A stretch of 64,000 nucleotides of DNA from Enterobacterales bacterium. GTDB taxonomy: Bacteria; Pseudomonadota; Gammaproteobacteria; Enterobacterales; GCA-002770795. The stretch lies in contig JBFFIY010000004.1 in assembly GCA_041556195.1 (NCBI GenBank), forward strand, positions 5,646-69,645, read 5' to 3'. Position 1 is the stretch's first letter; each line of letters starts with the position of its first letter. A program made the translations under genes and the position numbers. This document shows positions 12,218 through 34,217 of the stretch, piece by piece. The notes under the pieces were generated by a model that saw nothing but the letters and a program-made list of their open reading frames with translations, ran no database searches and was not told the DNA's origin.

Positions 12218-13480
12218 ATGTTAGAAAAACAAACTATTCGGCAATTATTCCAACGTGAGCTGTGGAGCTGGTCTCTCGTTTCTTTTGCACTGGCTGTTAT
12301 TGAAGGCGGTGTAGCTGGTGTTTTGGTGAACTTGATTTTTAAGGGGCAAGTGAGTGATTTCTGGTTGAGTCAGGCTGTAGCAATTACCGCCGGTGCCCCC
12401 GCTATTGCTAACTTAAGTAGTCCACTATGGGCCAAAATAGAGCAGGGCAAAGATAAGGTAAAACTGGTTTATCTGTTAAACCTGGGCAGTTCGACTTGTT
12501 TGATGTTATTTATTCTGGCACCTATTAATCCTATAGGTATGTGGATGATGGTGACGGGGGCGTTATTAGGACGAATATGCTGGTCAGGTGTGTTAACGGT
12601 TCGTTCAGCTTTATGGAGAGCCAATTACCCCAGGTATCTTCGAGCTAAAATTACCGCTAGTCTGGCCTTACCTATGTCTCTGATCCTTGCTGGAACGGGT
12701 TCATTAATCGGCTGGGTGAGTCAGAACTCAATAGAAAATATTCGCTTGCTGTATATCCTGTTGATGCTATTAGGCGTGACAGGTGCGTTTTATTATCGGC
12801 ATTTGCAAATCAGAGGGGCTAAAACTTTAGCTGAGTCTGAAAACAATCTAAAAGCTGAAGAGGGTCAATTTAGTTGGACGATGTTATTCAACATTCTCAA
12901 ACAGGACAAACCCTATCGGCAATATATGTTTACCATGTTTATTTTTGGTTCTGGCAACCTGATGTTTATGGCACCGCTCATACTCATCATTAACGAACAG
13001 CTACATATACCACAATGGCAACAGATCATGATGACATCTTCTCTTCCTCTTGCTGTTTTGCCTTTGACCATTGGTTTATGGGCTAAAAAGTTAAACCGAT
13101 TACATGTGGTTCAATACAGAGCATTTCATAGTTGGAGTTTTGTTTTAGCCATCGGTCTATTTGCTATTGCCAGTGCTTTACAACTACCAGCTTTGTTATG
13201 GCCGGCATCCTTTATGTTTGGAACTGCTGTGGCGGGTGCCGTGCTAGGTTGGAATCTGGGACATCATGATTTCACCACACCAGAGAGAGCATCGCAATAT
13301 ATGGCCGTACATGTAACTTTAACTGGCGTAAGAGGTCTTATTATGCCGATTTTAGGAGTTAACCTCTATCAGGCATTAAATGCTTTAAGCCCGGAATTAG
13401 GACGCTACAGTTTGTTTTTACCCTTAACATTAAGTTTTATTGGTGCAATGGCATTTGTCAGGTTATCTAAAAAGTCTTAA
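12218..13480 (+). CDS. Polytopic membrane transporter, probably MFS-type
   Basis: 420 aa with about 12 hydrophobic segments split by a central hydrophilic loop. I recognise no diagnostic motif. Confidence 0.5.
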   Translation: MLEKQTIRQLFQRELWSWSLVSFALAVIEGGVAGVLVNLIFKGQVSDFWLSQAVAITAGAPAIANLSSPLWAKIEQGKDKVKLVYLLNLGSSTCLMLFILAPINPIGMWMMVTGALLGRICWSGVLTVRSALWRANYPRYLRAKITASLALPMSLILAGTGSLIGWVSQNSIENIRLLYILLMLLGVTGAFYYRHLQIRGAKTLAESENNLKAEEGQFSWTMLFNILKQDKPYRQYMFTMFIFGSGNLMFMAPLILIINEQLHIPQWQQIMMTSSLPLAVLPLTIGLWAKKLNRLHVVQYRAFHSWSFVLAIGLFAIASALQLPALLWPASFMFGTAVAGAVLGWNLGHHDFTTPERASQYMAVHVTLTGVRGLIMPILGVNLYQALNALSPELGRYSLFLPLTLSFIGAMAFVRLSKKS

Positions 13481-13569
13481 GCTGGTTGAGAAATAACTGA
13501 CTAGCGACTAAAGTTATAGGAGTTTCGAGTATCGAGTTTTGAGATTTTACTTATTAATAAAGGTATTTT

Positions 13570-13971
13570 ATGGAAATCCCTGTTACCACATTATTTGTTG
13601 CTATTATGGCTTTATTTATTCTCTATCTGGCTTATAGAGTGGCAAGTTCCAGGCGTACACATAAGGTTGGTGTGGGAGATGGCGGTAATCGCGAAATGAA
13701 AGTTGCAGTGAGATGCCATGCTAACGCTGTTGAATATTGTCCAATTATTTTGTTATTACTACTGGTAGCAGAATTAAATAAAGTTCCTGCTACATGGCTT
13801 TACATTGCAGGAGGTGTATTAGTTGTTTCCAGACTAATGCATGCCTGGGGTATGACAAAAACTCAGGGGAACTATTCTCCCGGACGTTTTTATGGCATTT
13901 TGGGTACATGGTTGGTATTGATTTTTTTGGCGGGTTTAAATCTATCAATTTACTTTGGTATTCAATATTAA
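13570..13971 (+). CDS. MAPEG-family membrane protein (YecN-like)
   Basis: 133 aa with 3-4 transmembrane segments. VGVGDGGN...RCHANAVEYCPIILLLL..AE resembles YecN/MAPEG. Confidence 0.7.
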   Translation: MEIPVTTLFVAIMALFILYLAYRVASSRRTHKVGVGDGGNREMKVAVRCHANAVEYCPIILLLLLVAELNKVPATWLYIAGGVLVVSRLMHAWGMTKTQGNYSPGRFYGILGTWLVLIFLAGLNLSIYFGIQY

Positions 13972-14000
13972 GAGTTAAGAGAATTTAATGGGCTATTTAA

Positions 14001-15533
14001 ATGTCTAACAAAAAAGTAATCACCGTGTTTGTTCATGGCTGGAGTGTGACCAATACTGAAATCTATGGTGAATTGCCTTTGCGTCTGGTAAAAACAGCTA
14101 AGAAATATCAATTAGAAATAGAAATTAAAGAAATATTTTTAGGACGTTATATTAGCTTTCAGGATGAAGTTACTATTGATGATATCTCCGTTGCTTTTCA
14201 GGCTGCCATCAACGAGCAACTTAAACCATTTATAGAAGCAGGTGAGCGGTTTGTCTGCATTACTCATTCAACTGGCGGCCCAATTGTTAGAAATTGGTGG
14301 CAGCGGTATTACGCAAGTCCTTCATCGAAAAAACGCTGCCCTATGAGCCACCTGATTATGCTGGCTCCTGCTAGTTTCGGTTCTTCATTAGTACGCCTGG
14401 GCAAGAGACAACTTAGTCGTTTGAAATCATGGATTGAAGGATCTGAACCTGGAACCAATGTATTAAACTGGTTAGCACTTGGCAGTGAACAGGCCTGGGA
14501 TTTAAATAAACAATGGATCCGTTCTAATGGCCGTCAAATTGGTAAAAATGGTTTTTTTCCTTTTATCCTGACGGGACAAACTATTGACCGCTCATTGTAT
14601 GATTTTTTAAATAGTTATACGGGAGAGATGGGAAGTGATGGCGTCATTCGTGTGGCTTCGGCAAATTTAAATGCCAGATATATCAGATTAGAACAAACAC
14701 CGGATCCTGATGAAAAAGGAGAATGTTCCTTTGCCTTACTTGAGCTTATTGAAACGGCTGATGCAGCGCAAATACCTTTTAGAATATTAAAGGGAAAATC
14801 CCATTCTGGAGAAACCAGGGGAATTATGCGTAGCGTCAAAAACAATAATTCTGATAAAAAAAGTGAACAAACTTTGGCGGCCATTATTGATTGTATTTGT
14901 GTGACTAACAAAAAGGAATTCAATCAGCTTATTAAATTTTTTAAACAACAAACTCAAAAAGTACAATTACAAGAAAAAGTAGAAACAGAAAAAAACATCT
15001 TTCCAGAAGATACCTGTTTTATTCATGATACTTTTACTCAAGTTATTTTCAGAGTCAGAGACAACGAAGGGCGAGCCGTTGAAGACTACGATCTTATACT
15101 TACCGCAGGGGATGCAGATGATCCTAATCATCTGCCTCAGGGGTTTTGTGTTGATCGCCAGAGAAATCCAACTAATAGAGAAATTTTAACCTATTATTTA
15201 AACAATGATGTTATGCGTGGAAGTTCTGCCATTACAAATGAACAGGGAGAAGTAATCAGAAAACAAATCGAACCAACATGTAAGTTAGGTTTTAAAATTT
15301 TCCCACGTCCCGATGAAGGATATGTACATTATTTACCATGTCATCATGAAGCATCAGCAGATATTCTTGATGCGGTTTTGTTGCCTAATGCAACAGTTAT
15401 GATTGATGTCATCTTACAACGAGTGGTGAGCAGCAACCTGTTTGGTCTATATCATGTCAAAAATAATAAAATACCTTCAGGAAAACATGGATCTTTTCGT
15501 GAACAAAAACCAACGAAGAAAATCATTTTCTAG
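14001..15533 (+). CDS. Alpha/beta-hydrolase (lipase/esterase-like) with an uncharacterised ~250-aa C-terminal domain
   Basis: VFVHGWS followed by a nucleophile elbow ITHSTGGP (a GxSxG variant). I do not recognise the C-terminal half. Confidence 0.55.
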   Translation: MSNKKVITVFVHGWSVTNTEIYGELPLRLVKTAKKYQLEIEIKEIFLGRYISFQDEVTIDDISVAFQAAINEQLKPFIEAGERFVCITHSTGGPIVRNWWQRYYASPSSKKRCPMSHLIMLAPASFGSSLVRLGKRQLSRLKSWIEGSEPGTNVLNWLALGSEQAWDLNKQWIRSNGRQIGKNGFFPFILTGQTIDRSLYDFLNSYTGEMGSDGVIRVASANLNARYIRLEQTPDPDEKGECSFALLELIETADAAQIPFRILKGKSHSGETRGIMRSVKNNNSDKKSEQTLAAIIDCICVTNKKEFNQLIKFFKQQTQKVQLQEKVETEKNIFPEDTCFIHDTFTQVIFRVRDNEGRAVEDYDLILTAGDADDPNHLPQGFCVDRQRNPTNREILTYYLNNDVMRGSSAITNEQGEVIRKQIEPTCKLGFKIFPRPDEGYVHYLPCHHEASADILDAVLLPNATVMIDVILQRVVSSNLFGLYHVKNNKIPSGKHGSFREQKPTKKIIF

Positions 15534-15656
15534 AAGTTGAGATAACTTAAAAGTTTCATAGAAATTTACGACTGAGATTACACCGGAGTTTTCTCGTAAA
15601 GAAAGTAGTGAGGAATGGTGAAAATTATATGTTAAAATCAAAGAAGGGCAAATAAT

Positions 15657-16376
15657 ATGTGGAATTCTCAAATAATAAACTTAAAAAAAAATAATCTTAT
15701 CTTGCTGATAATTATATGTTTGTTTTTTTGTTCGGGAGCGGTGATGGCTGATAGTCTCTGGAAATTAAAAAAAGACAAAAAAGACATACAGGTTTATACC
15801 AAACAGGTGGAAGGTTCACCTTATAAGGCAGTTAAAACAACAACGCTCATAAAGAATACAAAATTGGCGTCAATGGTTGCATTAATTTTAGATGCGAAAG
15901 CTTGTAAAGACTGGGCACCAAAATGTGCAGAATCCTATATTATTAAGCAAATATCTAACACAGAATCCTACGTATATACCCATAACTCCATGCCTTTTCC
16001 GGTAACTGATCGAGACGTTGTATCTCTTGTTAAATGGCACCAAAACCCCAAAACTTATGAAGTTACTATGAATAGTACCGCTACCGCAGATATAAAAGAA
16101 AAAGTAAAGCGTAGACTTCGTTTGAAAGAAGCAACGGTCAGTTGGACATTTAAACCATTAGCAACAGGTGGCATAGAAGTAACTAACCAGGCTCATATCA
16201 ACCCTGGCTCAAACTTACCAGGCTGGATCACCAACATGCTTCTGGTGAGCACTCCTTTTAATACTATGAAAGCTTTCGCTAAAGAAGTGGCTAAACCAAA
16301 ATACCGCGATGCCTCGGTTGATTTTATTAAAGAACAGCCTGAGAATGAGGTTGAACCTACGGAAAAGAATAAATAA
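15657..16376 (+). CDS. Secreted START-domain (lipid-binding) protein
   Basis: A signal peptide (LILLIIICLFFCSGAVMA/DS) precedes a START-like core (W.L...KDIQVYTK...YKAVK ... MPFPVTDRDVV ... NLPGWITN). Confidence 0.6.
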   Translation: MWNSQIINLKKNNLILLIIICLFFCSGAVMADSLWKLKKDKKDIQVYTKQVEGSPYKAVKTTTLIKNTKLASMVALILDAKACKDWAPKCAESYIIKQISNTESYVYTHNSMPFPVTDRDVVSLVKWHQNPKTYEVTMNSTATADIKEKVKRRLRLKEATVSWTFKPLATGGIEVTNQAHINPGSNLPGWITNMLLVSTPFNTMKAFAKEVAKPKYRDASVDFIKEQPENEVEPTEKNK

Positions 16377-21412: not shown

Positions 21413-24400
21413 TTAAGTTAGGTTGTTACTAATAGTCTCAATGGTTTTCATCAGGTTATCAGAAAGCATCTGAACAGTTTTGTCAGTAAAGAGTTTCTGG
21501 CTATAGGTTAAACGAATTGTGAGCTTTTCTTCAATTACACCAGCTTCGAAATAGAGTAAGTATCCCAGATGATTGGCATCGTCAATCTCAGTAATTCCCT
21601 GTAAATCCATTGTCGGTTTAAAAGGAATTTTATCAGGCATTATTGCGTCAATTTGACCTACATAATTAAAGAATAGTTGAGGATTTTGATGTGCTGTTAT
21701 TTCGGGATGTTTGCTAATGTATCTAAGAATATTGTAGTTCATATTTCTAGTTGGCACCTGAGCCAATTGTTCGGTGATGTCCTTCACAAAGGCTAAATCG
21801 TCATTAGATGTAGAACTATTTGCTACAAGCCTGACAGGGAAAACTGTATTTAGCCAACCAACAGTTCGAGATAAATTAATATCTGTCTGGCCACTATCTC
21901 GACCATGACCACAGATACTCACAGTGGCTTCGTTTTCATTGGTCCATTGTTGAGTCATTTTCAGAAAACTCGCAAGAAGAATATTCTGAATTTTTAGCCC
22001 AAGATTTGCAGGTATGGTTTTTAATAACTTTTTAGTGCAATCATGTGATGTCTCAAAGGTTATAGTCTTGGCCGAAGCCTCGATATTAGAATGATTATCT
22101 AAAGGGAAGTCTGTAGGAATTGTTGGACTGGGGTGCGTTGCAAGTTGTCCCCAATAATTTAAATCAGTTGTAAAATCGGCATTGTGGGCATACTGGTGTA
22201 AATACTCAGTCCATTGTTTTAAGGAAGAAGTTTTTTGGGCGAGTTTGATTTTAAGGCCGCGTCTGGCATATTCATAACCCTTCATCAAGTCTTCAAAAAT
22301 AATTCTGGAAGAAACCATATCTAATAACAGGTGGTGGGCAACAATGGCTAGTTTTCCTTCGTTTTTTGAAGTTTTAAAGTAAAGAGCTTGAATAAGTGGA
22401 GCTTCATTAAGCCGGATATTTTTATTACTTTGATTAATGTATTCGATAATTTCATTGGATTGATTCTCAGGCGCTGATTGAGTTAAATTGTAATTAAATA
22501 GTACTTTTTTATCTGGTAAACAATTTGAACTTTGTTGGATCCAGCTTTCATCATCGTGTTGTAAGAATCTAACCCTGAGAGCATCATGATGCATGAGTAG
22601 GTTATCTATCGATTTTTGTAAGGCTTTAACTGAAATATTTTTATCGACATTAAATAAAAACAGTCTGTTCCAGTGATTGGGATTTACGAAATCATCACTG
22701 AAAAATTTGATTTGTCTGGCACTGAGTGGAAACTCTCCTTCGATATGTGTTTGTTCAACATTTACCTTTGTTAGTTTTGAACTAACAGCGGCTAAATCAG
22801 AAATTGTTCTTTGGTCAAATAAGGTACTGGTTTCAAAAATTAAACCTTTCTCTTCGGCGGCGCAGACAAATTGAATAGCCATTAAGCTATCGCCACCCAA
22901 ATCAAAAAAGCTGTCATGAATACTAATTTTCCCGGTTGGAATTTTAAGGATCTCCGACCAGATATTAGCAAGTTTTTTCTCAATTTTAGTTGAGGCAGGG
23001 GTGAATTTAGTGAAACGTTTAATAGACTGTTCCGGTTTGGGTAATTTATTCCTGTTAAGTTTACCGCTATTGGTTCTAGGGATTTCATCCATTTTCACAA
23101 ACAATGCTGGAATCATATAACTCGGAATATTCTCTGATAGAAAGTTTTTTATATCTTCGGTTACCAGATCTTTTTCACTAACGTAATAGGCTACTAATCG
23201 TTTAGCTTCTTCCCCTTTCCCGTGGGTAACAATAACAACATCTTTAATTGATTCAAAGCCGGATAGAACAGTTTCAATTTCAGCTAGTTCAATTCTGAAA
23301 CCACGAATCTTAACTTGTGAATCAAGCCTTCCGAGAAAATCTATATTGCCATCTTCCTGATAACGAGCCAGATCCCCTGTTTTATAAAGTGTGTCACTGG
23401 GATTGTTTGAAAAAGGATTTTTGATAAATGCTACTTCAGTTAATTCGGGGCGATTGAGATAACCATCTGCGATCCCAACTCCTCCGAGGTAAAGTTCACC
23501 AGCCACTCCTTTGGGTTGTAGTTGCAAATTATCATCGAGAATGTAGCTTTGTGTGTCAGATAATGGCTTACCTATTGGGATACAAGATGATTGAATATGA
23601 GGTTCGCAATAACTAAAAGTTGAATAAATGCTGGCTTCAGTTGGACCATAGAAATTATATAATTCAGCCTGGGACATATGATAAAAATTATCACGTAATG
23701 ATGGTGCTAATGCTTCACCGGCAGCAAGTACGCGAGTTAAACTATTAAGATCATCATTTTTAGCAATAGATAATAATGCGTTGAGTAAAGAAGGAACCAT
23801 GCAGCTAGTGGTGATTTGGTGTTGTTTGATCAAATCAATAAGATAGCCAGGATCTTTGTTTTTATCCTGTTCAATTAATGCTAAAGATGCACCAGAAATT
23901 AAAGGCCAGAAAATTTCAGCCACAGAAACATCAAAAGTAAAATCTGTACTCTGTAGCATGATATCAGTAGTATTTAAAGGTAATTCATTATGTAAAAACA
24001 ATAATCTTGGAGTGACATTTTTATGGAGGATGGGTACACCCTTAGGTTTTCCTGTAGATCCTGATGTGTAAATGATATAGGCGAGTGCATCTTCAGTGAT
24101 ATTCAGTTCAGGGTTTTCATCTGAATACATATGAGTTTGAGACGCTTCTTCATTTAAATTGAAATAGATTGAATTGATTGATTTTGAAGATTTTAAATCA
24201 TCACAAAGAGACTGTGTTTCATTGTTGTAAATCAGCAAATCAGCATTGGTATCCTCAAGAATAAATTCAATTCTGAACCTGGGGTAATCGGGGGCTAAAG
24301 GAATATAACAACTGCCGGTTTTTAATATGGCTAACAAGCTGGTAATGAGCTCGGGCCCACGGTTAAGGCAAACAGCAATTTTACTATGAGGTTTAATTCC

Positions 24401-26071
24401 TTTTTCAATCAGGTGGTGTGCAAGCTGATTGGCTCTTTCGTTGAGTTGTTGATAGCTGAGTTTTTGCTCGCTGAGTAGTGAAGAGTTAAGTTGTGAAGAA
24501 CTAGTCGCTTGTAATGTATTTCCATCTGCATTAAAAAGCAGAGCTGTAGCTTGAGAAGTAGATGTAACCTGTTGTTCAAATAATTGTTGAATGGATTTAA
24601 TAGAACTTGTTTCTGAAGCAATATTTTTTGCTTGTCCTAATGTAAGAAGTTGAGCTTCTTCCTCAGCGGAGTTTAATTTAAATTGACTGAGTTTAAGATC
24701 GGGGTTTGTAGTCATTTGCTCCAGAATCAACCGGATATGATTCATCGCTTGTTCAATAAACTTTCTATCAAACATGGAGGTGCGGTACTCGAACCATAAG
24801 CCTATGCCATTTTCTAATATTTCATAGGATAAAGATAAATCGTCATTAACATCATTATATTCAGATTCTAGTGGCTGAGTTGTTATACCTTCAAGGTGTA
24901 AATTGAAAATTCTGGATACGGTTTGTGCCATGGATAAATTAAACATAGTTCCATCAAAATCAGTAACCGTTTCACGAATTGTGCTCACGATATCCAAGGC
25001 TGGAAATTTTTGATGGCGTTTATCTTCTTTACGACTGGCAGAGACCCTTCCGAGTAACTCGTGATAAGTCGGATCACCAGAAAGATCAATTCGGACAGGA
25101 ATAATATTTACGAAAAAACCGAAAAGGTGTTTGAAACCAGGCGGACGAATATTGACAGGATAACCAATTAAAATATCATTTAACGCAAAATAACGATGGA
25201 TAAATATACTAAAAGCACAAACAATAACATTAAATAGAGTGGTTTTGTTTTTAGAGGTATTTTCTTTAAGTGCTTTAGCAAGTTCCTGACTGATATCAAA
25301 ATAAACACGGTGGCCTTGCTTGTCATCAACCTGTTGATTTTTTCGGCCATAACTATAGTCAAAATAATGATTAGCATCTAAGAGTCGATTTTGCCAATGG
25401 GTTTTAGATAAAGCATGTTTTTCTTCATCTAATTGAGTACGGCTGTCATTAAAATAATCATCCCAATTTTTTTTGGTCGGATCATAAGCTGTTTCTAGTC
25501 CCTGATAACCTTCATTGTAAGCAATAGAAAGAGACTCAAGGAAGAGAACCGCAGAGCGACCATCAGAGATCATATGAGGAACCATGCCAATAAGATAGTG
25601 AGTGTTAATGGCTGTTTTAATCAGCGCAGCACGCACTATGGGAAATTCTTTAAGATCAACGGGTGTGTTTAATTTTTTTGACAGGTAATCGAGTCCCTGT
25701 TGTTTTTGCTCTTCAGTCTCTTGTAAATTATCTGTAGAAATGTCTTCATAATCTAAAAAATAGACAGCCTCTTGCTTCATACATTGATAAGGGACCCCTT
25801 TTTTTTCAATAAAATAAACTTTTAGAGAATCAAAATATTTTACAATATCATGCAGCGCCTGACCCAGACGATTTTTATCCATTGGGCCGGTAAGTTTGAC
25901 CTTAACACAGGTGTTATAGGAAGTGTTTTCCGGATGTAACTTCCATTCGATCCAAAGACCCTGTTGTTGTTTGGTCAGAGGATAAATTTTATCGTTTGAA
26001 GTTTGTTTGGACATAGATATTCCGCTAGTTTCTGCGCTAATTGTATCTGTAGTAAAATTTTCTATCTTCAT
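21413..26071 (-). CDS. Single-module non-ribosomal peptide synthetase, domain order C-A-T-C
   Basis: 1552 aa.
- C1: active-site motif PHMISDG at about aa 165-171.
- A domain: LSYQQLN, YTSGSTGKPKG, FDVSV, NFYGPTE, GELYLGG, YKTGD, KIRGFRIEL, NSGKLNR.
- T domain: FFDLGGDSL, with the Ser at about aa 1062.
- C2: HHLLLDMVS at about aa 1246.
No TE, R or E domain is present. Confidence 0.95.
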   Translation of the reverse strand: MKIENFTTDTISAETSGISMSKQTSNDKIYPLTKQQQGLWIEWKLHPENTSYNTCVKVKLTGPMDKNRLGQALHDIVKYFDSLKVYFIEKKGVPYQCMKQEAVYFLDYEDISTDNLQETEEQKQQGLDYLSKKLNTPVDLKEFPIVRAALIKTAINTHYLIGMVPHMISDGRSAVLFLESLSIAYNEGYQGLETAYDPTKKNWDDYFNDSRTQLDEEKHALSKTHWQNRLLDANHYFDYSYGRKNQQVDDKQGHRVYFDISQELAKALKENTSKNKTTLFNVIVCAFSIFIHRYFALNDILIGYPVNIRPPGFKHLFGFFVNIIPVRIDLSGDPTYHELLGRVSASRKEDKRHQKFPALDIVSTIRETVTDFDGTMFNLSMAQTVSRIFNLHLEGITTQPLESEYNDVNDDLSLSYEILENGIGLWFEYRTSMFDRKFIEQAMNHIRLILEQMTTNPDLKLSQFKLNSAEEEAQLLTLGQAKNIASETSSIKSIQQLFEQQVTSTSQATALLFNADGNTLQATSSSQLNSSLLSEQKLSYQQLNERANQLAHHLIEKGIKPHSKIAVCLNRGPELITSLLAILKTGSCYIPLAPDYPRFRIEFILEDTNADLLIYNNETQSLCDDLKSSKSINSIYFNLNEEASQTHMYSDENPELNITEDALAYIIYTSGSTGKPKGVPILHKNVTPRLLFLHNELPLNTTDIMLQSTDFTFDVSVAEIFWPLISGASLALIEQDKNKDPGYLIDLIKQHQITTSCMVPSLLNALLSIAKNDDLNSLTRVLAAGEALAPSLRDNFYHMSQAELYNFYGPTEASIYSTFSYCEPHIQSSCIPIGKPLSDTQSYILDDNLQLQPKGVAGELYLGGVGIADGYLNRPELTEVAFIKNPFSNNPSDTLYKTGDLARYQEDGNIDFLGRLDSQVKIRGFRIELAEIETVLSGFESIKDVVIVTHGKGEEAKRLVAYYVSEKDLVTEDIKNFLSENIPSYMIPALFVKMDEIPRTNSGKLNRNKLPKPEQSIKRFTKFTPASTKIEKKLANIWSEILKIPTGKISIHDSFFDLGGDSLMAIQFVCAAEEKGLIFETSTLFDQRTISDLAAVSSKLTKVNVEQTHIEGEFPLSARQIKFFSDDFVNPNHWNRLFLFNVDKNISVKALQKSIDNLLMHHDALRVRFLQHDDESWIQQSSNCLPDKKVLFNYNLTQSAPENQSNEIIEYINQSNKNIRLNEAPLIQALYFKTSKNEGKLAIVAHHLLLDMVSSRIIFEDLMKGYEYARRGLKIKLAQKTSSLKQWTEYLHQYAHNADFTTDLNYWGQLATHPSPTIPTDFPLDNHSNIEASAKTITFETSHDCTKKLLKTIPANLGLKIQNILLASFLKMTQQWTNENEATVSICGHGRDSGQTDINLSRTVGWLNTVFPVRLVANSSTSNDDLAFVKDITEQLAQVPTRNMNYNILRYISKHPEITAHQNPQLFFNYVGQIDAIMPDKIPFKPTMDLQGITEIDDANHLGYLLYFEAGVIEEKLTIRLTYSQKLFTDKTVQMLSDNLMKTIETISNNLT

Positions 26072-26835
26072 GAGGTGTGAAAGTATTCTCTAGTAGGGAT
26101 AACCAACGCATAGGGTACTTTTGATGAACAGGGGCTGCCATCCCAGTAATGGTAATTAATGGTTTTATCGTCAATGGTTAGATGACTCAAACTAACGGTT
26201 GTTGCATCATCCCGGTGCATACAAATTGAATTTTTTCCCGGAGCAGGGTGATGAGAACGATGTAACATTAACTGCTGCTCAATAGATTGTGGTGGTTGCT
26301 CTTCAAAGTAGTGTGATCTTTGATGAATAACAGATTTGGTATCTACACTTGATGAGGTGGCAAAAGCCGGCAAGTCAACTTGATTAAGCACAGTCCCATC
26401 CCAAACCAGTTGAGTTTTGACAGATTTAGAAATCATTAATAATCTAAAAGCTTGATACTGTTTTAGATCAAGTGTTTTTAATTGGTCTAAAAGTTCAGCC
26501 TGACTTTGACAAAATGCTAATGACTTAATTAATAATCCGCGACTTTTTTGAATAAGCTTTTTTTTGCCTTCAGCCTGTTTTTGAGCCTGCTCCAGAACTT
26601 GTTCCTGAATTAAGGGAATTTGTTTTTCATAAAGGTTTAAAAGACACAGCAAAACTCCATCGTTATTAACAGCAAGCCAACTACCACCGCCATCGGGATC
26701 GATAGGCATTAATGCCTGTTGTTTGTTTTGCTCGAACTTTTTTGGCTTCATTGCCTTGCTTCGGAGTTTTTGTTCATCCCGATTAAAACAAATGGATAGT
26801 GTTTCTCCGGTTTGAAACCAACTTACTGAGCACAT
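26068..26835 (-). CDS. NRDE / TANGO2-family protein (Ntn-hydrolase-like, N-terminal Met-Cys)
   Basis: 255 aa, beginning MCSVSWF with the eponymous motif in SICFNRDEQ. The stop overlaps the NRPS start (ATGA). Confidence 0.8.
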   Translation of the reverse strand: MCSVSWFQTGETLSICFNRDEQKLRSKAMKPKKFEQNKQQALMPIDPDGGGSWLAVNNDGVLLCLLNLYEKQIPLIQEQVLEQAQKQAEGKKKLIQKSRGLLIKSLAFCQSQAELLDQLKTLDLKQYQAFRLLMISKSVKTQLVWDGTVLNQVDLPAFATSSSVDTKSVIHQRSHYFEEQPPQSIEQQLMLHRSHHPAPGKNSICMHRDDATTVSLSHLTIDDKTINYHYWDGSPCSSKVPYALVIPTREYFHTS

Positions 26836-27356
26836 GCCTGCTTCTGTTCATAAGCAACAGTTGAAGGTGCTTTGCCAAAGTTTGTGGCTGGAGTAATGTG
26901 ATTGACTCTTAAGATAATGGAAATAATGGCCATATGATGTGTCGTATGACTATGAACAAATTGTAATTCACGCAGCAGTGTTGATTTGCCTTCCATTATA
27001 GCAATGGTTGCATCAGTGGTTACTGATACAGAAATTTTTTGTTCCTGCGAGCCTTTGAGTTGTTCCAATTGCTCACAAATAACGCGGATTTTTTCACCTG
27101 CAACCGTCAACTCGCTTTCAATAACAGGATCACGTTCTCGCTTGTCATAATCTATTTCATTGCCGGGTAGACCTGAGAAAAGTGCGAAATAAAAATCAAG
27201 TATATGTCTGACATGACCGCCAATAGATGCGTTGCCAGCCACCAATTCAGGCTTTGAATACAAAGACCTATCTGTTTCATTGATAGATGTTAATGAACCA
27301 AACAGTTCATTTAATATTGATTGATTGTTAATGACAATCTTATCCAACAGATTCAA
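26823..27356 (-). CDS. DinB-superfamily (DinB_2/YfiT-like) metal-dependent protein
   Basis: 177 aa. His-rich motifs GGHVRHILDFY and FVHSHTTHH are spaced as in DinB four-helix-bundle metalloenzymes. TTG start 5 nt after GAGGAAG. The 3' end overlaps the NRDE gene by 13 nt. Confidence 0.7.
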   Translation of the reverse strand: MNLLDKIVINNQSILNELFGSLTSINETDRSLYSKPELVAGNASIGGHVRHILDFYFALFSGLPGNEIDYDKRERDPVIESELTVAGEKIRVICEQLEQLKGSQEQKISVSVTTDATIAIMEGKSTLLRELQFVHSHTTHHMAIISIILRVNHITPATNFGKAPSTVAYEQKQACAQ

Positions 27357-27412: not shown

Positions 27413-27418
27413 ATTATA
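27413..27418 (-). promoter_or_regulatory. Candidate -10 hexamer (TATAAT) for the DinB-NRDE-NRPS operon
   Basis: The minus strand reads gtaggaTATAATggtc about 55 nt upstream of the TTG start. I see no convincing -35 at canonical spacing. Confidence 0.35.
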
Positions 27419-27603
27419 TCCTACTTATGTTACAAATTTTAAGCCCTCAAGCCATTGAACTTGCTTTTAAGTGGGTAAAAATTAACCGAAATCTCTAAAT
27501 AATACAATTTAATCTGTGATCCTACTGTGGATCCTGAGTTTAGAAATATTCTCTACCCAAATTTAGACGAGTTGTTGATGAGGGGGTATATTAAACGGGT
27601 GTA

Positions 27604-30066
27604 TTAATTGAAGTTAACTTGAATGGGTATTTGAGCAGAATGCTTACTTTTTCTAAATAACACATAAAGCGCACTCAGAAATAGTCCTAATATCCCACCG
27701 CTCCATAATGTTGATTGTAATGGGTGGTCAAAAAATGTGGCCATTTGGTAAAAAATGACTGCAGAACCGTAAGCCAGACCTGTACTCCAGGAAATGCCCA
27801 GAATCGCCCAATTCTTGCCGGTTTCTCGAAACATTGCTCCAGCGGCAGCAATGCAGGGAGAGTAGAGCAGAATAAATAACATATAGGCAAAAGCACCTGT
27901 TTTTCCATCAAAACGGCTTTGCATTGCCGTCATGGTAGCCACATTGACCTCTTGTTTTAGCGCCGCCTGTTGTTGATTTTCAGTTTCATCAATCACGCCG
28001 AGTCCCAGAGGATCGGTAAGGTTATTCATGGCATCTGCTAAATTGACGGGAATGGTTTCAAGTGCAGTGATGAGATCATTTGACAGATCAAAGGGCGGCT
28101 CTTCTTCCACGTCCTGAGATTTATTGTCCATGTTAGAGTAAAGAGAATCCAGAGTTCCAACTACGACTTCTTTTGCCAATACGCCAGTGATAATGCCCAC
28201 CGTAGCTGGCCAGTTATCCTGTTCGATGCCCATTGGGGCAAAAATGGGAGTGATTGTTTGTGCAGTGGCACTTAATACAGATTGTGAGGAATCTTCATTA
28301 CCAAAACTGAGATCTGTTCCCAGACTATTAACCACATTAATAATCATGACCACAATGACGATGATTTTACCGGCACCTAACACAAAACCTTTGAGTTTAT
28401 TCCAGGTATTGATAAGTACATTTTGCAAACCAGGTAATTGGTAGCCTGGTAGCTCCATTAAAAAGTCTTGTGCATTACCCTTTAGTATGGTGTTTTTTAA
28501 AATAAGCGCAGTCAGAATGGCAAATCCAACACCTGTTAGATAGAGCAAAAATACAATATTCTGACCTCCCTGAGGAAAGAATGTTGCTGCAAATAAAGCA
28601 AAAACTGTTAATCTGGCCCCGCAGGACATAAAAGGCGCCATTAATACTGTTAATATACGCTCTCTATGTGAGTCCATGGTTCTAGTGGCCATGATGGCAG
28701 GCACATTGCAACCAAATCCGATAATAAGTGGCACAAAAGCTTTACCTGAGATCCCCAGTTTTTGTAAAGATCTATCCATGACAAAGGCTGCTCGGGACAT
28801 GTAACCGGATTCTTCGAGCAAGGTTAAAAATAAATATAATGCGCCAATGATTGGGATAAAGGTTGCTACAACTTGAACACCTCCGCCAATGCCTTGCGCC
28901 AAAATGATGCGGATCCACTGTGGAATGCCAAAATCGGTTAGTAAATGGTCTAACCCATTGACCAGAAAAGCTTCTACAGTTAAATCAAAAAAGTCGATAA
29001 AGGCGCCACCAATATTGATACTGAATAAAAAAAGTAAATACATAATCAATAAAAAAACAGGGACACCAGTGACATTGCCCAACACCCATCGATCTATTTT
29101 ATCTGTAAATAAATTTTTGGCGGGCTTTGATTGAGAGGTTACATCTGTAGCTATTTGCAGAGCCCGGACATAATGCTCCTGGGCTATTAATTGAAAGATG
29201 GTCTTGCTGGTTTTTTGATAAACATCCTGACTTAATTCAATGGCTTTGTCAGTTAGCTGATTTTCCTGATTTTTTTTGTTTTCAAGAAACTGGTTGTTTT
29301 CAAGAGTCTGGGTATTTTCGTGGTTTTCTTTATTTATTGAAGTTTTACCATGTTTGTTATGTTCTGCATCGGAAGTAACTTTTGCATCAGAAGTAAGCAA
29401 GGAAGCTTTTTCCAATTCATTTAAAGCAAAAAGACGTTCACAGTTAAACGACGCTTGAAAAGAAGAGAGAGCATTTTCGAGCGCATCAATATATGTGAGT
29501 CCCAGTGAGCAGGGTTGCTGATGTTGAGATTCAGCGATTTCAGTGAGCAGTTTGTTTAGATCTTTGTCACGATTTAAGGAAAAGGTAATAACCGGGCATT
29601 GAAGTTGTTGTGAAAGTTGTTCGGTATCAATGATCAGATTTAATTTATCGGCCATATCAATCATATTAAGCAACACAATGACAGGAATACCCTGCTCTCT
29701 TAACTGAGAGGTCAAATAAAGGCTTTTTTCAAGTGTTGTAGTATCAATAATGTTGATATAGAGATCATTATTGTGTTGTTTAACATATGAACGAGCGATT
29801 TGTTCATCAAGTGAAGAATGGCTTAAATTGAGTGAATAAGTGCCAGGTAAATCAATAACTTCAAAGAGGTTACCAGAAATTGAAAATTGACCGGATTTTT
29901 GTTCAACAGTGACACCAGGCCAGTTTCCTGTTCTTTGTCGAGTTCCGGTTAGACGATTAAATAAAGTTGTTTTTCCAGAATTAGGGTTGCCTATTAAAGC
30001 AATAGTATGGGATAAGTTTTCGGTTGAGCCTTGAGTTGTTGTTTGAGGATCGCAGCAATTTTTCAT
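27604..30066 (-). CDS. feoB: Ferrous iron transporter FeoB; start uncertain
   Basis: G-domain IALIGNPNSGKTTLFN, DLPGTYSL and NMIDMA precede a polytopic membrane domain. The ORF-track start at 30141 is a TTG that overlaps feoA, so I prefer the ATG at 30066 (MKNCC...). Confidence 0.93.
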   Translation of the reverse strand: MKNCCDPQTTTQGSTENLSHTIALIGNPNSGKTTLFNRLTGTRQRTGNWPGVTVEQKSGQFSISGNLFEVIDLPGTYSLNLSHSSLDEQIARSYVKQHNNDLYINIIDTTTLEKSLYLTSQLREQGIPVIVLLNMIDMADKLNLIIDTEQLSQQLQCPVITFSLNRDKDLNKLLTEIAESQHQQPCSLGLTYIDALENALSSFQASFNCERLFALNELEKASLLTSDAKVTSDAEHNKHGKTSINKENHENTQTLENNQFLENKKNQENQLTDKAIELSQDVYQKTSKTIFQLIAQEHYVRALQIATDVTSQSKPAKNLFTDKIDRWVLGNVTGVPVFLLIMYLLFLFSINIGGAFIDFFDLTVEAFLVNGLDHLLTDFGIPQWIRIILAQGIGGGVQVVATFIPIIGALYLFLTLLEESGYMSRAAFVMDRSLQKLGISGKAFVPLIIGFGCNVPAIMATRTMDSHRERILTVLMAPFMSCGARLTVFALFAATFFPQGGQNIVFLLYLTGVGFAILTALILKNTILKGNAQDFLMELPGYQLPGLQNVLINTWNKLKGFVLGAGKIIVIVVMIINVVNSLGTDLSFGNEDSSQSVLSATAQTITPIFAPMGIEQDNWPATVGIITGVLAKEVVVGTLDSLYSNMDNKSQDVEEEPPFDLSNDLITALETIPVNLADAMNNLTDPLGLGVIDETENQQQAALKQEVNVATMTAMQSRFDGKTGAFAYMLFILLYSPCIAAAGAMFRETGKNWAILGISWSTGLAYGSAVIFYQMATFFDHPLQSTLWSGGILGLFLSALYVLFRKSKHSAQIPIQVNFN

Positions 30067-30091
30067 AGAGGAGTGGATATGTGAGACTGGT

Positions 30092-30322
30092 TTATAGCTC
30101 TTTAACCAAAAGTTGTTGCGCGATGTTTTTCCCCAGGCCAATTCGACAGTGACCTCTACTTAAAACCACATCACCCTGACGGTTACGTAAGATTTGAATC
30201 AATGAACCCAATCCAAGTCCCATAGCGAGTAGTCGCACCTGTAATTGTGATGAAACCTTCATAGCGTCAATACTGACTTTGACGGATTCATTGATTTCAG
30301 AAAGAGGTATGAGCTGTTCCAT
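30092..30322 (-). CDS. feoA: FeoA (small SH3-like ferrous iron transport protein)
   Basis: 76 aa, immediately upstream of feoB. RLLAMGLGLGSLIQILR...GDVV is FeoA-like. Confidence 0.85.
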   Translation of the reverse strand: MEQLIPLSEINESVKVSIDAMKVSSQLQVRLLAMGLGLGSLIQILRNRQGDVVLSRGHCRIGLGKNIAQQLLVKEL

Positions 30323-30715: not shown

Positions 30716-31450
30716 TTGAACACCTTAGTATTGGCAATCTCATCCATTAATAAGAACAATTTCGTGTCTTTTAAAGTTGTAGAGTCAAAATCAGGGGTTT
30801 GGTATATCAGTCTTGGTGGATTATTTATTATCCTGTTACTGTTGAGTGGATGGTTTGGTTGGAAACAGGGGGGAGCCAGAACTGTTGAGCTGAGTCATCA
30901 GCTGACAATTGTCAGTGGTTTGCATGATGAGTTAAAGCTGCAAGTTGCGACCCTACAGCAACAATTACTCGAAATTGAAAGACGAGAGAAGATAGCTTTA
31001 GTGAGTGTCAAACAATCCAGTGAAGATATGTTAGCACTTCAGGAGCAAACCAAACAATTAGAAAAAGAATTGTCTTTTTATCGAAGCATTATGGCTCCCG
31101 AACTGGGTCAGTCTGGTTTAACCATTGATAGTTTAAAAGTCATACCTGAGTCGGGTGGTCGCTATTATTTTGAATTGGTGTTAACTCAAACTAAAAAACA
31201 GGATTGGTATTTAAAAGGTAGTTTTAATCTGTCACTATTGGGTAAACAACATGATAAAGCTGTTACTTTACCAATGAAGTCATTGATAATGGAGGAAAAT
31301 TGGAAACCGGAATTTTCATTCCGATATTTTCAAAAAATTGAGGGACGTTTCCAACTTCCTGAAAACGTTACGATTGCTAGTGTTTCAGTGACAGCATCGA
31401 CTAAAAAAGGCAAACAAAGGGTAGAAAAAAACTTTCCCTGGAGCTTGTAG
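30716..31450 (+). CDS. Hypothetical membrane-anchored coiled-coil protein; start uncertain (TTG in the ORF track)
   Basis: 244 aa: one transmembrane segment (WYISLGGLFIILLLLSGWFGW), a coiled coil, then a beta-rich C-terminus. It lies 13 nt upstream of the bactofilin gene. Confidence 0.45.
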   Translation: MNTLVLAISSINKNNFVSFKVVESKSGVWYISLGGLFIILLLLSGWFGWKQGGARTVELSHQLTIVSGLHDELKLQVATLQQQLLEIERREKIALVSVKQSSEDMLALQEQTKQLEKELSFYRSIMAPELGQSGLTIDSLKVIPESGGRYYFELVLTQTKKQDWYLKGSFNLSLLGKQHDKAVTLPMKSLIMEENWKPEFSFRYFQKIEGRFQLPENVTIASVSVTASTKKGKQRVEKNFPWSL

Positions 31451-31463
31451 GAGAATTCTCTAA

Positions 31464-31883
31464 ATGTTTAACGGCAAAAAGAAAAAAAGAGCAGTAGATA
31501 CACTGATTACTCAGCACACCACGATTAGTGGGAATATTGATTTTTCAGGTGTTTTGTATGTTGATGGTTTGGTTAATGGTGATATCACAGCCAAAGAAGA
31601 AAAATCGGTTCTGACTATAGGTGCCAGAGGACAGGTAACCGGTGAAATAAGAGTACCTCATGTAGTGATTTTTGGACGCGTGAATGGTGATGTACATGTT
31701 GGAGGTGAAATTGAATTATTAGCTAAATCGCATATTGAGGGCAATGTTTATTATAGCCAAATTCAAATGGCTATGGGAGCTGAAGTTAATGGGAAACTGG
31801 TTCATACCAACCCGGGTCAGACACAACGTTTAGAACATAAGCCCGTAGAGCCACTACCAAAAAAGCGGGTAATAGAAAAGTAG
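31464..31883 (+). CDS. Bactofilin (polymer-forming cytoskeletal protein, DUF583)
   Basis: 139 aa with the repetitive beta-helix pattern (ISGNIDFSGVLYVDGLVNGDI...VTGEIRVPHVVIFGRVNGDVHVGGEIELLAKSHIEGNVYY). Confidence 0.8.
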   Translation: MFNGKKKKRAVDTLITQHTTISGNIDFSGVLYVDGLVNGDITAKEEKSVLTIGARGQVTGEIRVPHVVIFGRVNGDVHVGGEIELLAKSHIEGNVYYSQIQMAMGAEVNGKLVHTNPGQTQRLEHKPVEPLPKKRVIEK

Positions 31884-32552: not shown

Positions 32553-34217
32553 TTAGGATTTAGCTTTAACAACGTTGTTTCTGCCATTCTCTTTCGCTTG
32601 ATATAGTGCTTTATCAGCAGCCTCCATCATGGCCTCAGCTGTTTTAAATTGAAGCATATCTGCTACACCACAGCTAAAAGTGGCATTGAATGTTGTTTCT
32701 TCGCCATGAAAATTTAACTCTTCAAAATTGCGTCTTAATTCATTAAGTATGTTTATAGAGTTTTCTGTTGATGTATCGGGAAACACAATCACAAATTCCT
32801 CTCCCCCATAACGACCAATAATATCTGTTGCTCTTAACCTTTGCTTAAGTAGACCGGCAAAACTTTTGAGAACGCGATCACCTGTACTGTGTCCATAATT
32901 ATCATTTATCTTTTTAAAGAAATCCAGATCAAGCATGGCTACACAAATTGGACTTGGATTACGTTGTCTAAGAGAGATTGCATCATTAAATCTTTCCATG
33001 GCCACTGCATGATTAAGAAGTCCGGTCAGGCTATCTTTGACCATGTGAGTTCTTAGCAAACGAGCCCGTTTAGCCCTGACTTTAACTGAGGATAATAAAA
33101 GTTCTGGTGAGACGGGTTTCATTAAAAAATCATCCCCTCCTTTTTCCATCGCCAGAAGTTGTCGTTCAACTTGATTTTCAGAAGATAAAAATATGATGGG
33201 GATGCTAATGAATTTATCCATTTGGCGTACCACCATGGCAATTTCATCCCCATTACAACCAGGCATATACATATCAAGCACCAGTATTTCTGGATCAAAT
33301 TCTGCCATAGCTTCAAGAACCTGCTCGGGATTGGTCAAAATACTGGTTTCCAGCCCCTCGTTTTGTAAAATTAAAGAGTGGTATTCTGCTTGACTTTTAT
33401 CATCATCAATAATCATGACTCGGTAATTTTCGTTAAGATCTTTGGTGTTTTCAGTTTCAATAAAAGAAAGTAGATTGTTTATGTCTAAAGGTTTTTCGAA
33501 ATAACCGCGACCTCCACCTCTAACTGCTGAAAGTCGGGCTTTAAAATCTGTTCGATTTGATATGAAAATAAGTGGTGTACGAGCGTCTAAACCTAAATGC
33601 ATGTGGCTTAGAATTTCTCCTGTATTCCCCTCTGGTATACCAATATCAACTAAAATAGCTGATGGTAATTGTTTTTCCAGTGCTTCAAGAAATGGTGAGA
33701 GTTTTTCAAAAATACGTACATTATAAGCAAATTTTTCAATTTGTAAGGCTATTTGCTTTCCCTGAAATTGATCATCTTCTACCAGATAAATGAGTTTGTT
33801 TTTTGGTTCATTCTTTATGGTTTTTTTCAGAATGGTGCTGCTTCTTTTGGGGATTGATATGTGTGTGGTGGAAGAATGAAGGTGTTTTCTGCATATGCTT
33901 CGAAGCTCCTGTATCAGTTCACCGACTTCTCTTAGTTGAAGAGTTGCAGTGGGAGATGAGTTTTCTCCCAGTGCATTTCTTAAGGGTTCTGTAACTTCTT
34001 TGGCCTTATCGCTAATTTCTTGAAAGCCAAATGCCCCAGCAGAACCTGCAAGATTGTGAGTTAGACGAAACAGAGCTTCTATTTTGACAGGATCAGAAGC
34101 ATCATGTTTGAGAGCTGACCATGTATCTTTGATATTGCTGAGTATGCTGGGAAGTTCCTGTACGTAATTATTTTGAAGTGATTGTAGTTTGTCAGATATT
34201 GTAGATTGCTCAGTCAT
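32553..34217 (-). CDS. Hpt-REC-REC-GGDEF response regulator / diguanylate cyclase
   Basis: An N-terminal Hpt-like motif (LTHNLAGSAGAFGF) is followed by two receiver domains with acceptor Asp residues (ILVDIGIPEG and LVLDMYMPG). The GGDEF domain has an intact GGEEF and an RATD I-site 5 residues upstream. Confidence 0.85.
   Translation of the reverse strand: MTEQSTISDKLQSLQNNYVQELPSILSNIKDTWSALKHDASDPVKIEALFRLTHNLAGSAGAFGFQEISDKAKEVTEPLRNALGENSSPTATLQLREVGELIQELRSICRKHLHSSTTHISIPKRSSTILKKTIKNEPKNKLIYLVEDDQFQGKQIALQIEKFAYNVRIFEKLSPFLEALEKQLPSAILVDIGIPEGNTGEILSHMHLGLDARTPLIFISNRTDFKARLSAVRGGGRGYFEKPLDINNLLSFIETENTKDLNENYRVMIIDDDKSQAEYHSLILQNEGLETSILTNPEQVLEAMAEFDPEILVLDMYMPGCNGDEIAMVVRQMDKFISIPIIFLSSENQVERQLLAMEKGGDDFLMKPVSPELLLSSVKVRAKRARLLRTHMVKDSLTGLLNHAVAMERFNDAISLRQRNPSPICVAMLDLDFFKKINDNYGHSTGDRVLKSFAGLLKQRLRATDIIGRYGGEEFVIVFPDTSTENSINILNELRRNFEELNFHGEETTFNATFSCGVADMLQFKTAEAMMEAADKALYQAKENGRNNVVKAKS

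Follow-up and report, generated by a model that had tools for sequence, protein, structure and literature searches.

A recurrent DinB-NRDE/TANGO2-NRPS gene block in an Enterobacterales genome and a tentative route to N-acylated amino acids

Loss of TANGO2 leads to severe metabolic disease in humans, and the function of the protein is disputed, the candidates being haem trafficking, acyl-CoA binding and hydrolysis of the cysteine N-terminal nucleophile (Cys-Ntn) type. Two further kinds of described system matter for what follows: an S-transferase step followed by an amidase step is the logic of mycothiol and bacillithiol detoxification and of sulfur incorporation in lincomycin, and a single module of condensation, adenylation, thiolation and epimerization domains (C-A-T-E) is the architecture of the N-acyl-D-Asn prodrug modules ClbN and XcnA. 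Human TANGO2 binds C16 and C18 acyl-CoA through its NRDE motif (PMC11867700), and from a crystal structure TANGO2 has been proposed to be a Cys-Ntn enzyme that hydrolyses fatty-acid derivatives (PMC13044924). HtpA (SO0126), a Shewanella homologue, has been reported to bind haem and its gene adjoins a metal transporter gene (PMC10470608), while the haem role of TANGO2 has been disputed (PMC12782551, PMC13044924). Here we analyse a 64,000-nucleotide (nt) stretch of an Enterobacterales genome (contig JBFFIY010000004.1; this whole stretch is called the window) in which a gene for an NRDE/TANGO2-family protein lies between genes for a predicted DinB-fold protein and a single-module nonribosomal peptide synthetase (NRPS).

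Our analysis indicates that these three genes form a compact, co-conserved and uncharacterised biosynthetic unit, as a preliminary description of the window had supposed. Open reading frames (ORFs) were called with their translations, and all coordinates are those of the whole stretch (Table 1). The ORF coordinates bear out the overlap of the three minus-strand genes, by 13 nt between DinB and NRDE and by 4 nt (ATGA) between NRDE and NRPS. Loci for comparison came from a genome scan with the NRDE alignment, from look-ups of close homologues and from a metagenome scan with the DinB alignment, and all of them were compared jointly by tblastn. The genes do co-occur in other genomes: the order DinB-NRDE-NRPS recurs in at least 11 other non-duplicate loci (L002, L004, L082, L084, L086, L093, L094, L095, L096, L098 and L102). 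In one of these, L004 from an Enterobacterales metagenome-assembled genome (MAG), the NRPS is broken by several frameshifts, due either to assembly error or to decay, and is still colinear. The genes upstream differ from place to place: feoB stands there only in the window and in L002, L093 and L094, which are near-identical to each other and represent one other species; elsewhere the upstream gene is GlnE (L082, L084) or chorismate synthase (L086), and taken together the NRPS loci without feoB lie behind GlnE, chemotaxis or flagellar, or chorismate genes. L002 comes from a groundwater gammaproteobacterial MAG, to which the organism of the window is a low-GC relative.

The downstream side of the block is also patterned. 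An Abhydrolase_11 gene and a major facilitator superfamily (MFS) transporter gene follow the NRPS in L082, L084, L096 and L098, and the transporter alone follows it in L004. Five loci (L088, L089, L091, L092 and L099) lack NRDE and have the order DinB-NRPS-Abhydrolase_11, mostly then MFS, so that DinB is the constant element of the NRPS loci. All 12 NRPS loci with downstream sequence have NRDE, Abhydrolase_11 or both, and in eight relatives an MFS gene comes after the NRPS. About 55 orthologues of the NRPS, all from MAGs or metagenomes, make up its family; they are full-length, have one module and measure 1430-1650 amino acids (aa), with 34-65% identity. No second NRPS, polyketide synthase (PKS) or ClbP-type peptidase was found among the window ORFs scanned (3228-48718) or in about 16 related loci with flanks of up to 10 kb, and in no locus is there a carrier or adenylation gene upstream of the NRPS.

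In the NRPS, Pfam finds a Condensation match (E 1.5e-131), an AMP-binding match (E 1.6e-80), a PP-binding match (E 4.7e-16) and a second Condensation match, and it finds neither an integrated thioesterase (PF00975) nor a reductase domain. A one-module enzyme without a thioesterase, as first described, is thus borne out. The further claim that condensation domains stand on both sides of the module (C-A-T-C) has to be given up. The Pfam Condensation model (PF00668) also covers epimerization (E) domains, and the C-terminal match is of this type: all ten PDB matches of the terminal domain at E<=1e-50 are E domains (TycA, TycB, GrsA, BacC and PvdL; 1e-51 to 1e-60), no C domain among its PDB matches reaches 1e-10, and it carries the E motifs GHGR, RTVGWLNTVFPV and FNYVGQ. 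Because the terminal domain matches E domains only and has these motifs, we describe the architecture as C-A-T-E-like. It is not a canonical E domain. The His of HHxxxD is present as His1247, and in a residue-level alignment to TycA and BacC the catalytic Glu of EGHGRE aligns to Cys1387 (window 21911-21913); one TycA entry has Ala at this position, presumably an engineered change. The sequence xCGHGR is found in 52 of 56 orthologues, as against EGHGRE in 15 of 16 motifs of multi-module hits, and a terminal domain with Cys for Glu may represent a distinct E-like subtype.

The most conserved part of the NRPS is the N-terminal condensation domain, C1 (57-77% identity among orthologues). Its motif PHMISDG keeps the catalytic second His (His166) and has Pro for the first, and every one of the 56 family members has PHxxSDG; in the PDB, C1 matches ordinary C domains (E about 1e-33), with the RzmA starter C domain at 1e-12 only. 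The adenylation (A) code, derived manually with the GrsA motifs as guide and afterwards from an alignment, is DVASLAFIYK, which opens with Asp (Asp235) and closes with Lys (Lys517), as in adenylation domains generally. The form DVASLA(F/V/I)IYK occurs in 41 of 56 orthologues, even though their A domains are only 41-60% identical. In the pocket, the residues at 239, 278 and 301 are small and the others hydrophobic. By comparison with known codes, a bulky hydrophobic or aromatic substrate is a weak guess. The one similar code that we found in the literature, DVASLAAYAK of lunaemycin Lun23, is itself without an assigned substrate. In the thiolation (T) domain the GGDSL phosphopantetheine motif is kept in seven orthologues.

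For the NRDE protein, the preliminary assignment as a TANGO2-family protein with an N-terminal Met-Cys, resembling Cys-Ntn enzymes, is upheld by several lines of evidence that agree. The protein scores 43.7 bits with Pfam TANGO2 (PF05742; cut-off 22.6), and M1, C2, R19, D20 and E21 are invariant in 19 homologues, with N18 conserved in at least 90%. Public gene calls place the start at an internal Met, giving 227 aa, and an exact-sequence look-up of the 255-aa protein returned no match; because M1 and C2 are invariant in the 19 homologues, we take the Met-Cys start to be the real one. The AlphaFold model has a predicted local distance difference test score (pLDDT) of 89 and a predicted template-modelling score (pTM) of 0.87. 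Foldseek matches it to CV2077, acyl-CoA:isopenicillin N acyltransferase (IAT), NAAA, bile-salt hydrolase (BSH), penicillin V acylase (PVA) and acid ceramidase, at a probability of 1.0 for IAT, NAAA, BSH/PVA and acid ceramidase, and class II glutamine amidotransferases such as EgtC are absent from these structural neighbours. These matches are the group of Cys-Ntn enzymes whose substrates are hydrophobic N-acyl amides or acyl-CoA. The model thus predicts an alpha-beta-beta-alpha Ntn fold and a Cys-Ntn hydrolase or acyltransferase. A profile search matches the human TANGO2 structures, with a sequence alignment that covers the N-terminal half only. Outside the aligned region, H192, H195, C205 and H207 (LHxSH...CMHRDDA) are specific to the bacterial subfamily and invariant in the 19 homologues, and could be a metal site.

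The 177-aa protein had been described as a DinB-fold metalloprotein, and here the case is divided: its Pfam scores fall just short of the cut-offs for both DinB (22.6 bits against 23) and DinB_2 (21.8 against 24.8), while the modelled fold and an invariant three-His pattern favour the description. Some orthologues do pass the Pfam threshold. A sequence search of the PDB with this protein alone gave no matches, which is why the fold is taken from the structure model (pLDDT 92.5). The top 14 Foldseek matches of the model are all DinB/YfiT proteins (template-modelling (TM) score 0.48-0.68, probability 0.82-1.0, weak E-values of 0.008 or more), led by YizA, BH3987, YjoA, YfiT and DR0053, with the OvsA DinB domain and the Mycobacterium tuberculosis mycothiol S-transferase lower down. 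The model thus predicts a DinB fold (four-helix bundle), and the weakness of the matches (E >= 0.008, TM 0.5-0.6) therefore allows no subfamily assignment. H51, H137, H140, H141, Y70, D71, R73, R75, R129 and E130 are invariant in 27 homologues, as are the motifs FGxAxST and YDxRxR. Since the three-His pattern of the fold, one His on helix 1 and HxxxH on the last long helix, is matched by H51, H137 and H141, these are putative metal ligands. Thiol S-transferases share no known sequence signature that would tell them apart from the rest of the DinB proteins. The subfamily of the window protein is large, with 853 clusters at E<=1e-30, nearly all of them stand-alone proteins of 165-240 aa.

The DinB-NRDE pair reaches well beyond the NRPS loci. 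NRDE directly follows DinB in 78 of the 79 genome loci found via NRDE and in 37 of the 47 metagenome loci found via DinB; of 72 junctions, 50 overlap, 31 of them by exactly 13 nt. Among the taxa that carry the pair are Vibrio, Photobacterium, Grimontia, Moritella, Amphritea, Marinomonas, Arenicella, Cellvibrionaceae, Gemmatimonadota, Acidobacteriota, Planctomycetota, KSB1 and a Cryomorphaceae MAG. In one locus (L067, Marinomonas pontica) two tandem copies of DinB stand upstream of NRDE.

The ORFs neighbouring the pair were clustered and then scanned with Pfam and NCBIfam. They include an OlsB-like GNAT N-acyltransferase (Acetyltransf_5 and FeeM, under the OlsB equivalog cut-off), an OlsA-like PlsC-type acyltransferase (Acyltransferase) and, in L090, an OlsF-like fusion of the two (Acyltransf_2 and Acetyltransf_5). 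They also include ATP-grasp ligases that resemble cyanophycin-synthetase and GshB-type enzymes; an ATP-grasp-like protein with a weak NCBIfam match to the cyanophycin synthetase ATP-grasp region, probably membrane-anchored to judge by its N-terminal hydrophobic stretch; and a DedA/VTT protein (VTT_dom). Also beside the pair are a secreted YHS (seleno)protein (NF041384), in 50 of 80 genome loci, and a membrane protein, in 24 of 80, that is labelled DoxX-like by inspection as it matches no Pfam or NCBIfam family (sister loci L006-L081 and L103-L172). Loci with the order DedA-ATPgrasp-DinB-NRDE-YHS-OlsB occur in Vibrio penaeicida, Photobacterium profundum, Marinomonas pontica and Grimontia. An amide-forming enzyme, be it OlsB-like, ATP-grasp or NRPS, is present in 55 of 56 and 12 of 13 long-flank loci (67 of 69). 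The OlsB/OlsA-like or ATP-grasp partners occur outside the window's lineage, and within that lineage the NRPS holds their position; tblastn finds no OlsB- or OlsA-like gene in the window.

What might such a block make? We propose, with a probability of roughly 0.4, that it makes an N-acylated amino acid (a lipoamino acid) by means of the NRPS, processed by NRDE and with DinB as an obligatory partner. The proposal builds on the observed gene order, overlaps, domain types and conserved catalytic residues and on co-conservation across many genomes. The A domain would load one conserved, probably hydrophobic, alpha-amino acid onto the T domain, and C1 would N-acylate it with acyl-CoA or acyl-acyl carrier protein (acyl-ACP) from primary metabolism, a donor to be expected because no locus has an upstream carrier or A gene. 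The E-like domain, with His1247 and Cys1387, would epimerise or otherwise process the tethered N-acyl-aminoacyl thioester, possibly giving a D-configured product. Release would be the task of a trans-acting hydrolase or acyltransferase, NRDE here and Abhydrolase_11, or both, in relatives, with NRDE acting on an acyl thioester or amide. DinB would supply a metal-dependent step that every version of the pathway shares, and the product would be exported by an MFS transporter, the gene for which follows the NRPS in most relatives. In the sister loci the OlsB-like enzymes are expected to yield N-acyl amino acids, and the lipoamino acid would be their equivalent made by an NRPS. The fold neighbours of NRDE, the acyl-CoA binding of TANGO2, the hydrolase proposed from its crystal structure and the OlsB/OlsA, FeeM-like and DedA context all speak for the proposal.

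A number of points weigh against this lipoamino-acid proposal. PDB matches do not single out one subtype for C1 (lipo-initiating starter, LCL or DCL), the A code has no substrate match in the literature or in the PARAS supplement, and the OlsB- and OlsA-like proteins of sister loci score below the NCBIfam equivalog cut-offs, so that their products are not given by family. NRDE cannot be confined to releasing a product from a carrier, given that the OlsB and ATP-grasp loci, which have no carrier domain, conserve it just as well; nor is it essential to the NRPS chemistry, because five NRPS loci do without it. The proposal gives DinB, the constant member, no definite step, and the DinB relatives known best are thiol S-transferases, a pointer to sulfur chemistry instead.

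A broader reading can be put forward, which we regard as possible and rather doubtful: that DinB-NRDE is an ancient, translationally coupled module of acyl-amino-acid (lipoamino acid or aminolipid) metabolism, plugged by different lineages into three non-homologous systems for making amides, those of OlsB/OlsA, ATP-grasp and NRPS. The module would then pair a TANGO2-family Cys-Ntn enzyme, whose substrates would be fatty-acyl thioesters or N-acyl amino acids, with an obligatory metal-dependent DinB partner, and the NRPS would contribute a new His/Cys E-like domain. If this is true, the bacterial loci show which chemistry is native to TANGO2 proteins. More generally, a bacterial TANGO2 subfamily in a fixed overlapping pair with DinB, beside known reaction types, is a testable lead on that chemistry, and a tractable one, since three or four small genes give a bacterial context for an unsettled biochemistry. 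Further gains are an NRPS family of about 55 clusters with one module and a conserved code, the E-like domain with Cys for Glu, and a pathway context for the 853-cluster DinB subfamily.

That no characterised pathway is known with this gene set, as had been stated at the outset, agrees with our searches of the literature and of named families, which gave no match. The literature yielded no description of NRDE with DinB, of OlsB with TANGO2, or of DUF833 or a stand-alone C-A-T-E in such a gene combination. The component proteins belong to known superfamilies. What is apparently undescribed, in that we found no paper, curated family or named homologue, is the DinB-NRDE pair, its association with aminolipid-type and ATP-grasp enzymes, the NRPS family and the Cys-for-Glu E-like domain.

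The region upstream of the block bears on how it may be expressed. The block was said to lie on the same strand as feoAB and about 250 bp downstream of it, and this is accurate: feoB lies upstream, with its stop at 27604, leaving a spacer of 247 bp to the DinB gene. It was also said to have its own upstream region, with a candidate TATAAT and a strong Shine-Dalgarno sequence. GAGGAAG is indeed found upstream of the TTG start of DinB, and a promoter-like site with TATAAT is present in the spacer (Table 1). Such matches are no more frequent in the region than in shuffled sequence (25 found, 33.7 expected), which takes away from the claim; what adds to it is that the site lies inside a block of about 37 nt, TTAAAWTTTGTAACA...TAGGATATAATGGTC, kept in the orthologous spacer of L002, L093 and L094, that is, in another species, the rest of the spacer having diverged. 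In this block (27413-27450, minus strand) TTTGTAACA stands between the -35-like and -10 hexamers, in common with the same three loci, and from its sequence it may be a regulator site. No terminator-like site was found between feoB and the promoter-like site or the DinB gene, and read-through from feoB is therefore possible. Nowhere in the window is there a match to the E. coli 19-mer Fur-box consensus at up to three mismatches, and an Rfam search of the window and of the 5' spacer gives no match.

Elsewhere in the window, an MFS transporter gene about 8 kb from the block is tentatively a candidate for the cognate exporter. Its product is 41-43% identical over the full length (E 2e-86) to the transporters encoded directly after NRPS-Abhydrolase_11 in L082 and L092. 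It heads a plus-strand run (12218-16376) with a MAPEG gene (13570-13971), a 510-aa ORF without a family match (14001-15533) and a START lipid-binding protein gene (15657-16376), and this run may be a displaced part of the pathway. Before it on the same strand (4281-12173) come RmuC and then, with overlapping junctions, a PD-(D/E)XK nuclease (958 aa) and a UvrD-type helicase (1175 aa), which from their sequences look like an AddAB-like recombination pair. On the other side of the block, the listed feoB ORF (window 27604-30322, minus strand; 845 aa, TTG start) is probably over-extended at its N-terminus, as the match to Pfam FeoB_N begins only at residue 46 and the alignment with orthologues at residue 26; it has a low-complexity insert rich in N, Q, E and K at about residues 250-320. 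Directly upstream of feoA, on the opposite strand, is a DUF6776-bactofilin pair (30716-31883, plus strand), and further along are response-regulator c-di-GMP enzymes with the domain orders Hpt-REC-GGDEF and REC-PAS-GGDEF-EAL (32553-34217, minus strand; 38863-41265, plus strand).

Table 1. Features of the DinB-NRDE-NRPS block and related genes, in coordinates of the 64,000-nt window
Feature	Coordinates	Strand	Basis and remarks
NRPS gene	21413-26071	-	ORF, 1552 aa, ATG start
Epimerization-like terminal domain, aa 1107-1547	21431..22753	-	HHLLLD with His1247; Cys1387
Thiolation domain, aa 1027-1095	22787..22993	-	Pfam PP-binding; Ser1062 in GGDSL
Adenylation domain, aa 534-1004	23060..24472	-	code DVASLAFIYK
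N-terminal condensation domain C1, aa 28-476	24644..25990	-	Pfam; motif PHMISDG, His166
NRDE/TANGO2 gene	26068-26835	-	ORF, 255 aa, ATG start
DinB gene	26823-27356	-	ORF, 177 aa, TTG start
Promoter-like TTAAAA-18 nt-TATAAT, 5' of DinB gene	27413..27442	-	consensus scan, 10/12 matches
feoA	30092-30322	-	76-aa ORF
MFS transporter	12218..13480	+	Pfam MFS_1; candidate cognate exporter (tentative)

How does the lipoamino-acid proposal stand against other explanations of the same loci? The strongest rival invokes sulfur. DinB would be a metal-dependent thiol S-transferase (as YfiT/BstA, mycothiol S-transferase or LmbV), NRDE would be a trimming amidase (as Mca, Bca, LmbE or EgtC), and the product of the NRPS, ATP-grasp or OlsB enzyme would gain a thiol or thioether. 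The succession of S-transferase and amidase in the thiol and lincomycin systems supports this idea, as do the invariant three-His pattern, the presence of YfiT, the mycothiol S-transferase and the OvsA DinB domain among the fold matches, an ATP-grasp partner that resembles glutathione-synthetase-type ligases (E 1e-27), the redox flavour lent to sister loci by the YHS (seleno)protein and DoxX-like genes, and the conserved Cys of the E-like domain. However, the fold matches in question are the weak ones noted above, the neighbours of NRDE are hydrolases of lipids and hydrophobic amides with no EgtC-like amidotransferase among them, the loci share no conserved gene for a C-S lyase or for generating an electrophile, and the OlsA-like O-acyltransferase and DedA partners point to lipids; on balance we think it unlikely that sulfur is incorporated. 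Less likely again is that the NRPS hands its product to another machine, in the manner of ClbN: a C-A-T-E-made N-acyl-D-amino-acid cap would be passed in trans to a distant assembly line, with DinB and NRDE as unrelated neighbours or tailoring enzymes. The shared architecture with ClbN and XcnA favours this, the usual recipient of what a terminal E domain makes is a D-specific C domain further downstream, and the NRPS has no thioesterase of its own. Against it, the search for a second NRPS, PKS or ClbP-type peptidase in the window and the related loci came back empty, the NRPS is conserved with a hydrolase and an MFS exporter instead, its code is not an Asn code, and the catalytic Glu of the E domain has become Cys, so that we give this explanation little credence.

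Iron enters the discussion in two ways. The preliminary description had raised a metal-related metabolite, and in its most specific form this would be a metallophore, the NRPS product being tied to ferrous iron uptake by feoAB. The 247-bp same-strand arrangement with no terminator-like site in between fits this, feoB is upstream in L002, L093 and L094 as well, a TonB-dependent receptor gene follows the MFS gene in one relative (L082), YHS-domain proteins are encoded in sister loci, and the Shewanella NRDE gene SO0126 adjoins a metal transporter gene (PMC10470608). The hypothesis is nevertheless weak, because the block adjoins feoAB in just one further species; moreover, it has a conserved promoter-like block of its own, the Fur-box consensus is missing from the window, and the NRPS has a single amino-acid module with no catechol, hydroxamate or thiazoline genes found in the window. 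The suggestion of a metal-related metabolite is therefore not sustained, and we consider a metallophore improbable. Alternatively, NRDE could be a haem-trafficking protein like HtpA whose adjacency to the NRPS is incidental; the reported haem binding of this bacterial TANGO2 homologue (PMC10470608) and the nearby feoAB would suit such a role. But the 13-nt overlap with DinB is kept across phyla and the pair sits with acyltransferases and ligases, which argues for an enzymatic role in a pathway, HtpA is encoded beside a different gene and is not paired with DinB, and the haem role of TANGO2 is in dispute, as cited above; we hold this explanation to be very improbable indeed.

The loci can also be compared with the known systems that they resemble. 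ClbN and XcnA, from colibactin and xenocoumacin biosynthesis, share with the window NRPS a single C-A-T-E module, no upstream carrier, no thioesterase and an expected N-acyl-D-aminoacyl thioester. The window NRPS differs in standing alone, with neither assembly line nor ClbP-type peptidase in about 16 loci, in a code, DVASLAFIYK, that is not for Asn, in the Cys that replaces the catalytic Glu of its E-like domain, and in its conservation with DinB, NRDE and/or Abhydrolase_11, and MFS. With the OlsB/OlsA ornithine-lipid and FeeM-type enzymes the likeness runs through the sister DinB-NRDE loci, which encode OlsB-like (Acetyltransf_5/FeeM) and OlsA-like proteins, and through the N-acylation expected in both; the window has the NRPS in place of OlsB/OlsA, and the sister proteins lie below the equivalog cut-offs. 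We know of no aminolipid pathway with DinB or NRDE proteins.

The pairs BstA/Bca, MST/Mca (mycothiol S-transferase and its amidase) and LmbV/LmbE likewise combine a DinB-fold, three-His protein with an amidohydrolase, in lincomycin inside a biosynthetic pathway. The putative amidase of the window has a predicted Ntn fold, however, and not the LmbE/Mca fold, and its DinB partner falls in a separate large subfamily (YDxRxR, FGKAPST) whose context implies no thiol substrate. HtpA is alike in being a bacterial NRDE-family protein encoded near a metal-transport gene, and unlike in having no DinB partner and in being transcribed alone; the haem trafficking proposed for it is not suggested by the context in the window. 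Finally, with human TANGO2, IAT, NAAA, acid ceramidase and BSH/PVA the window protein shares PF05742 (TANGO2), the Cys that becomes N-terminal once Met is removed, the NRDE motif and the predicted Ntn fold. Only the N-terminal half aligns with human TANGO2, and to this the bacterial subfamily adds H192, H195, C205-x-H207 and CMHRDDA, together with a gene that overlaps the gene for DinB.

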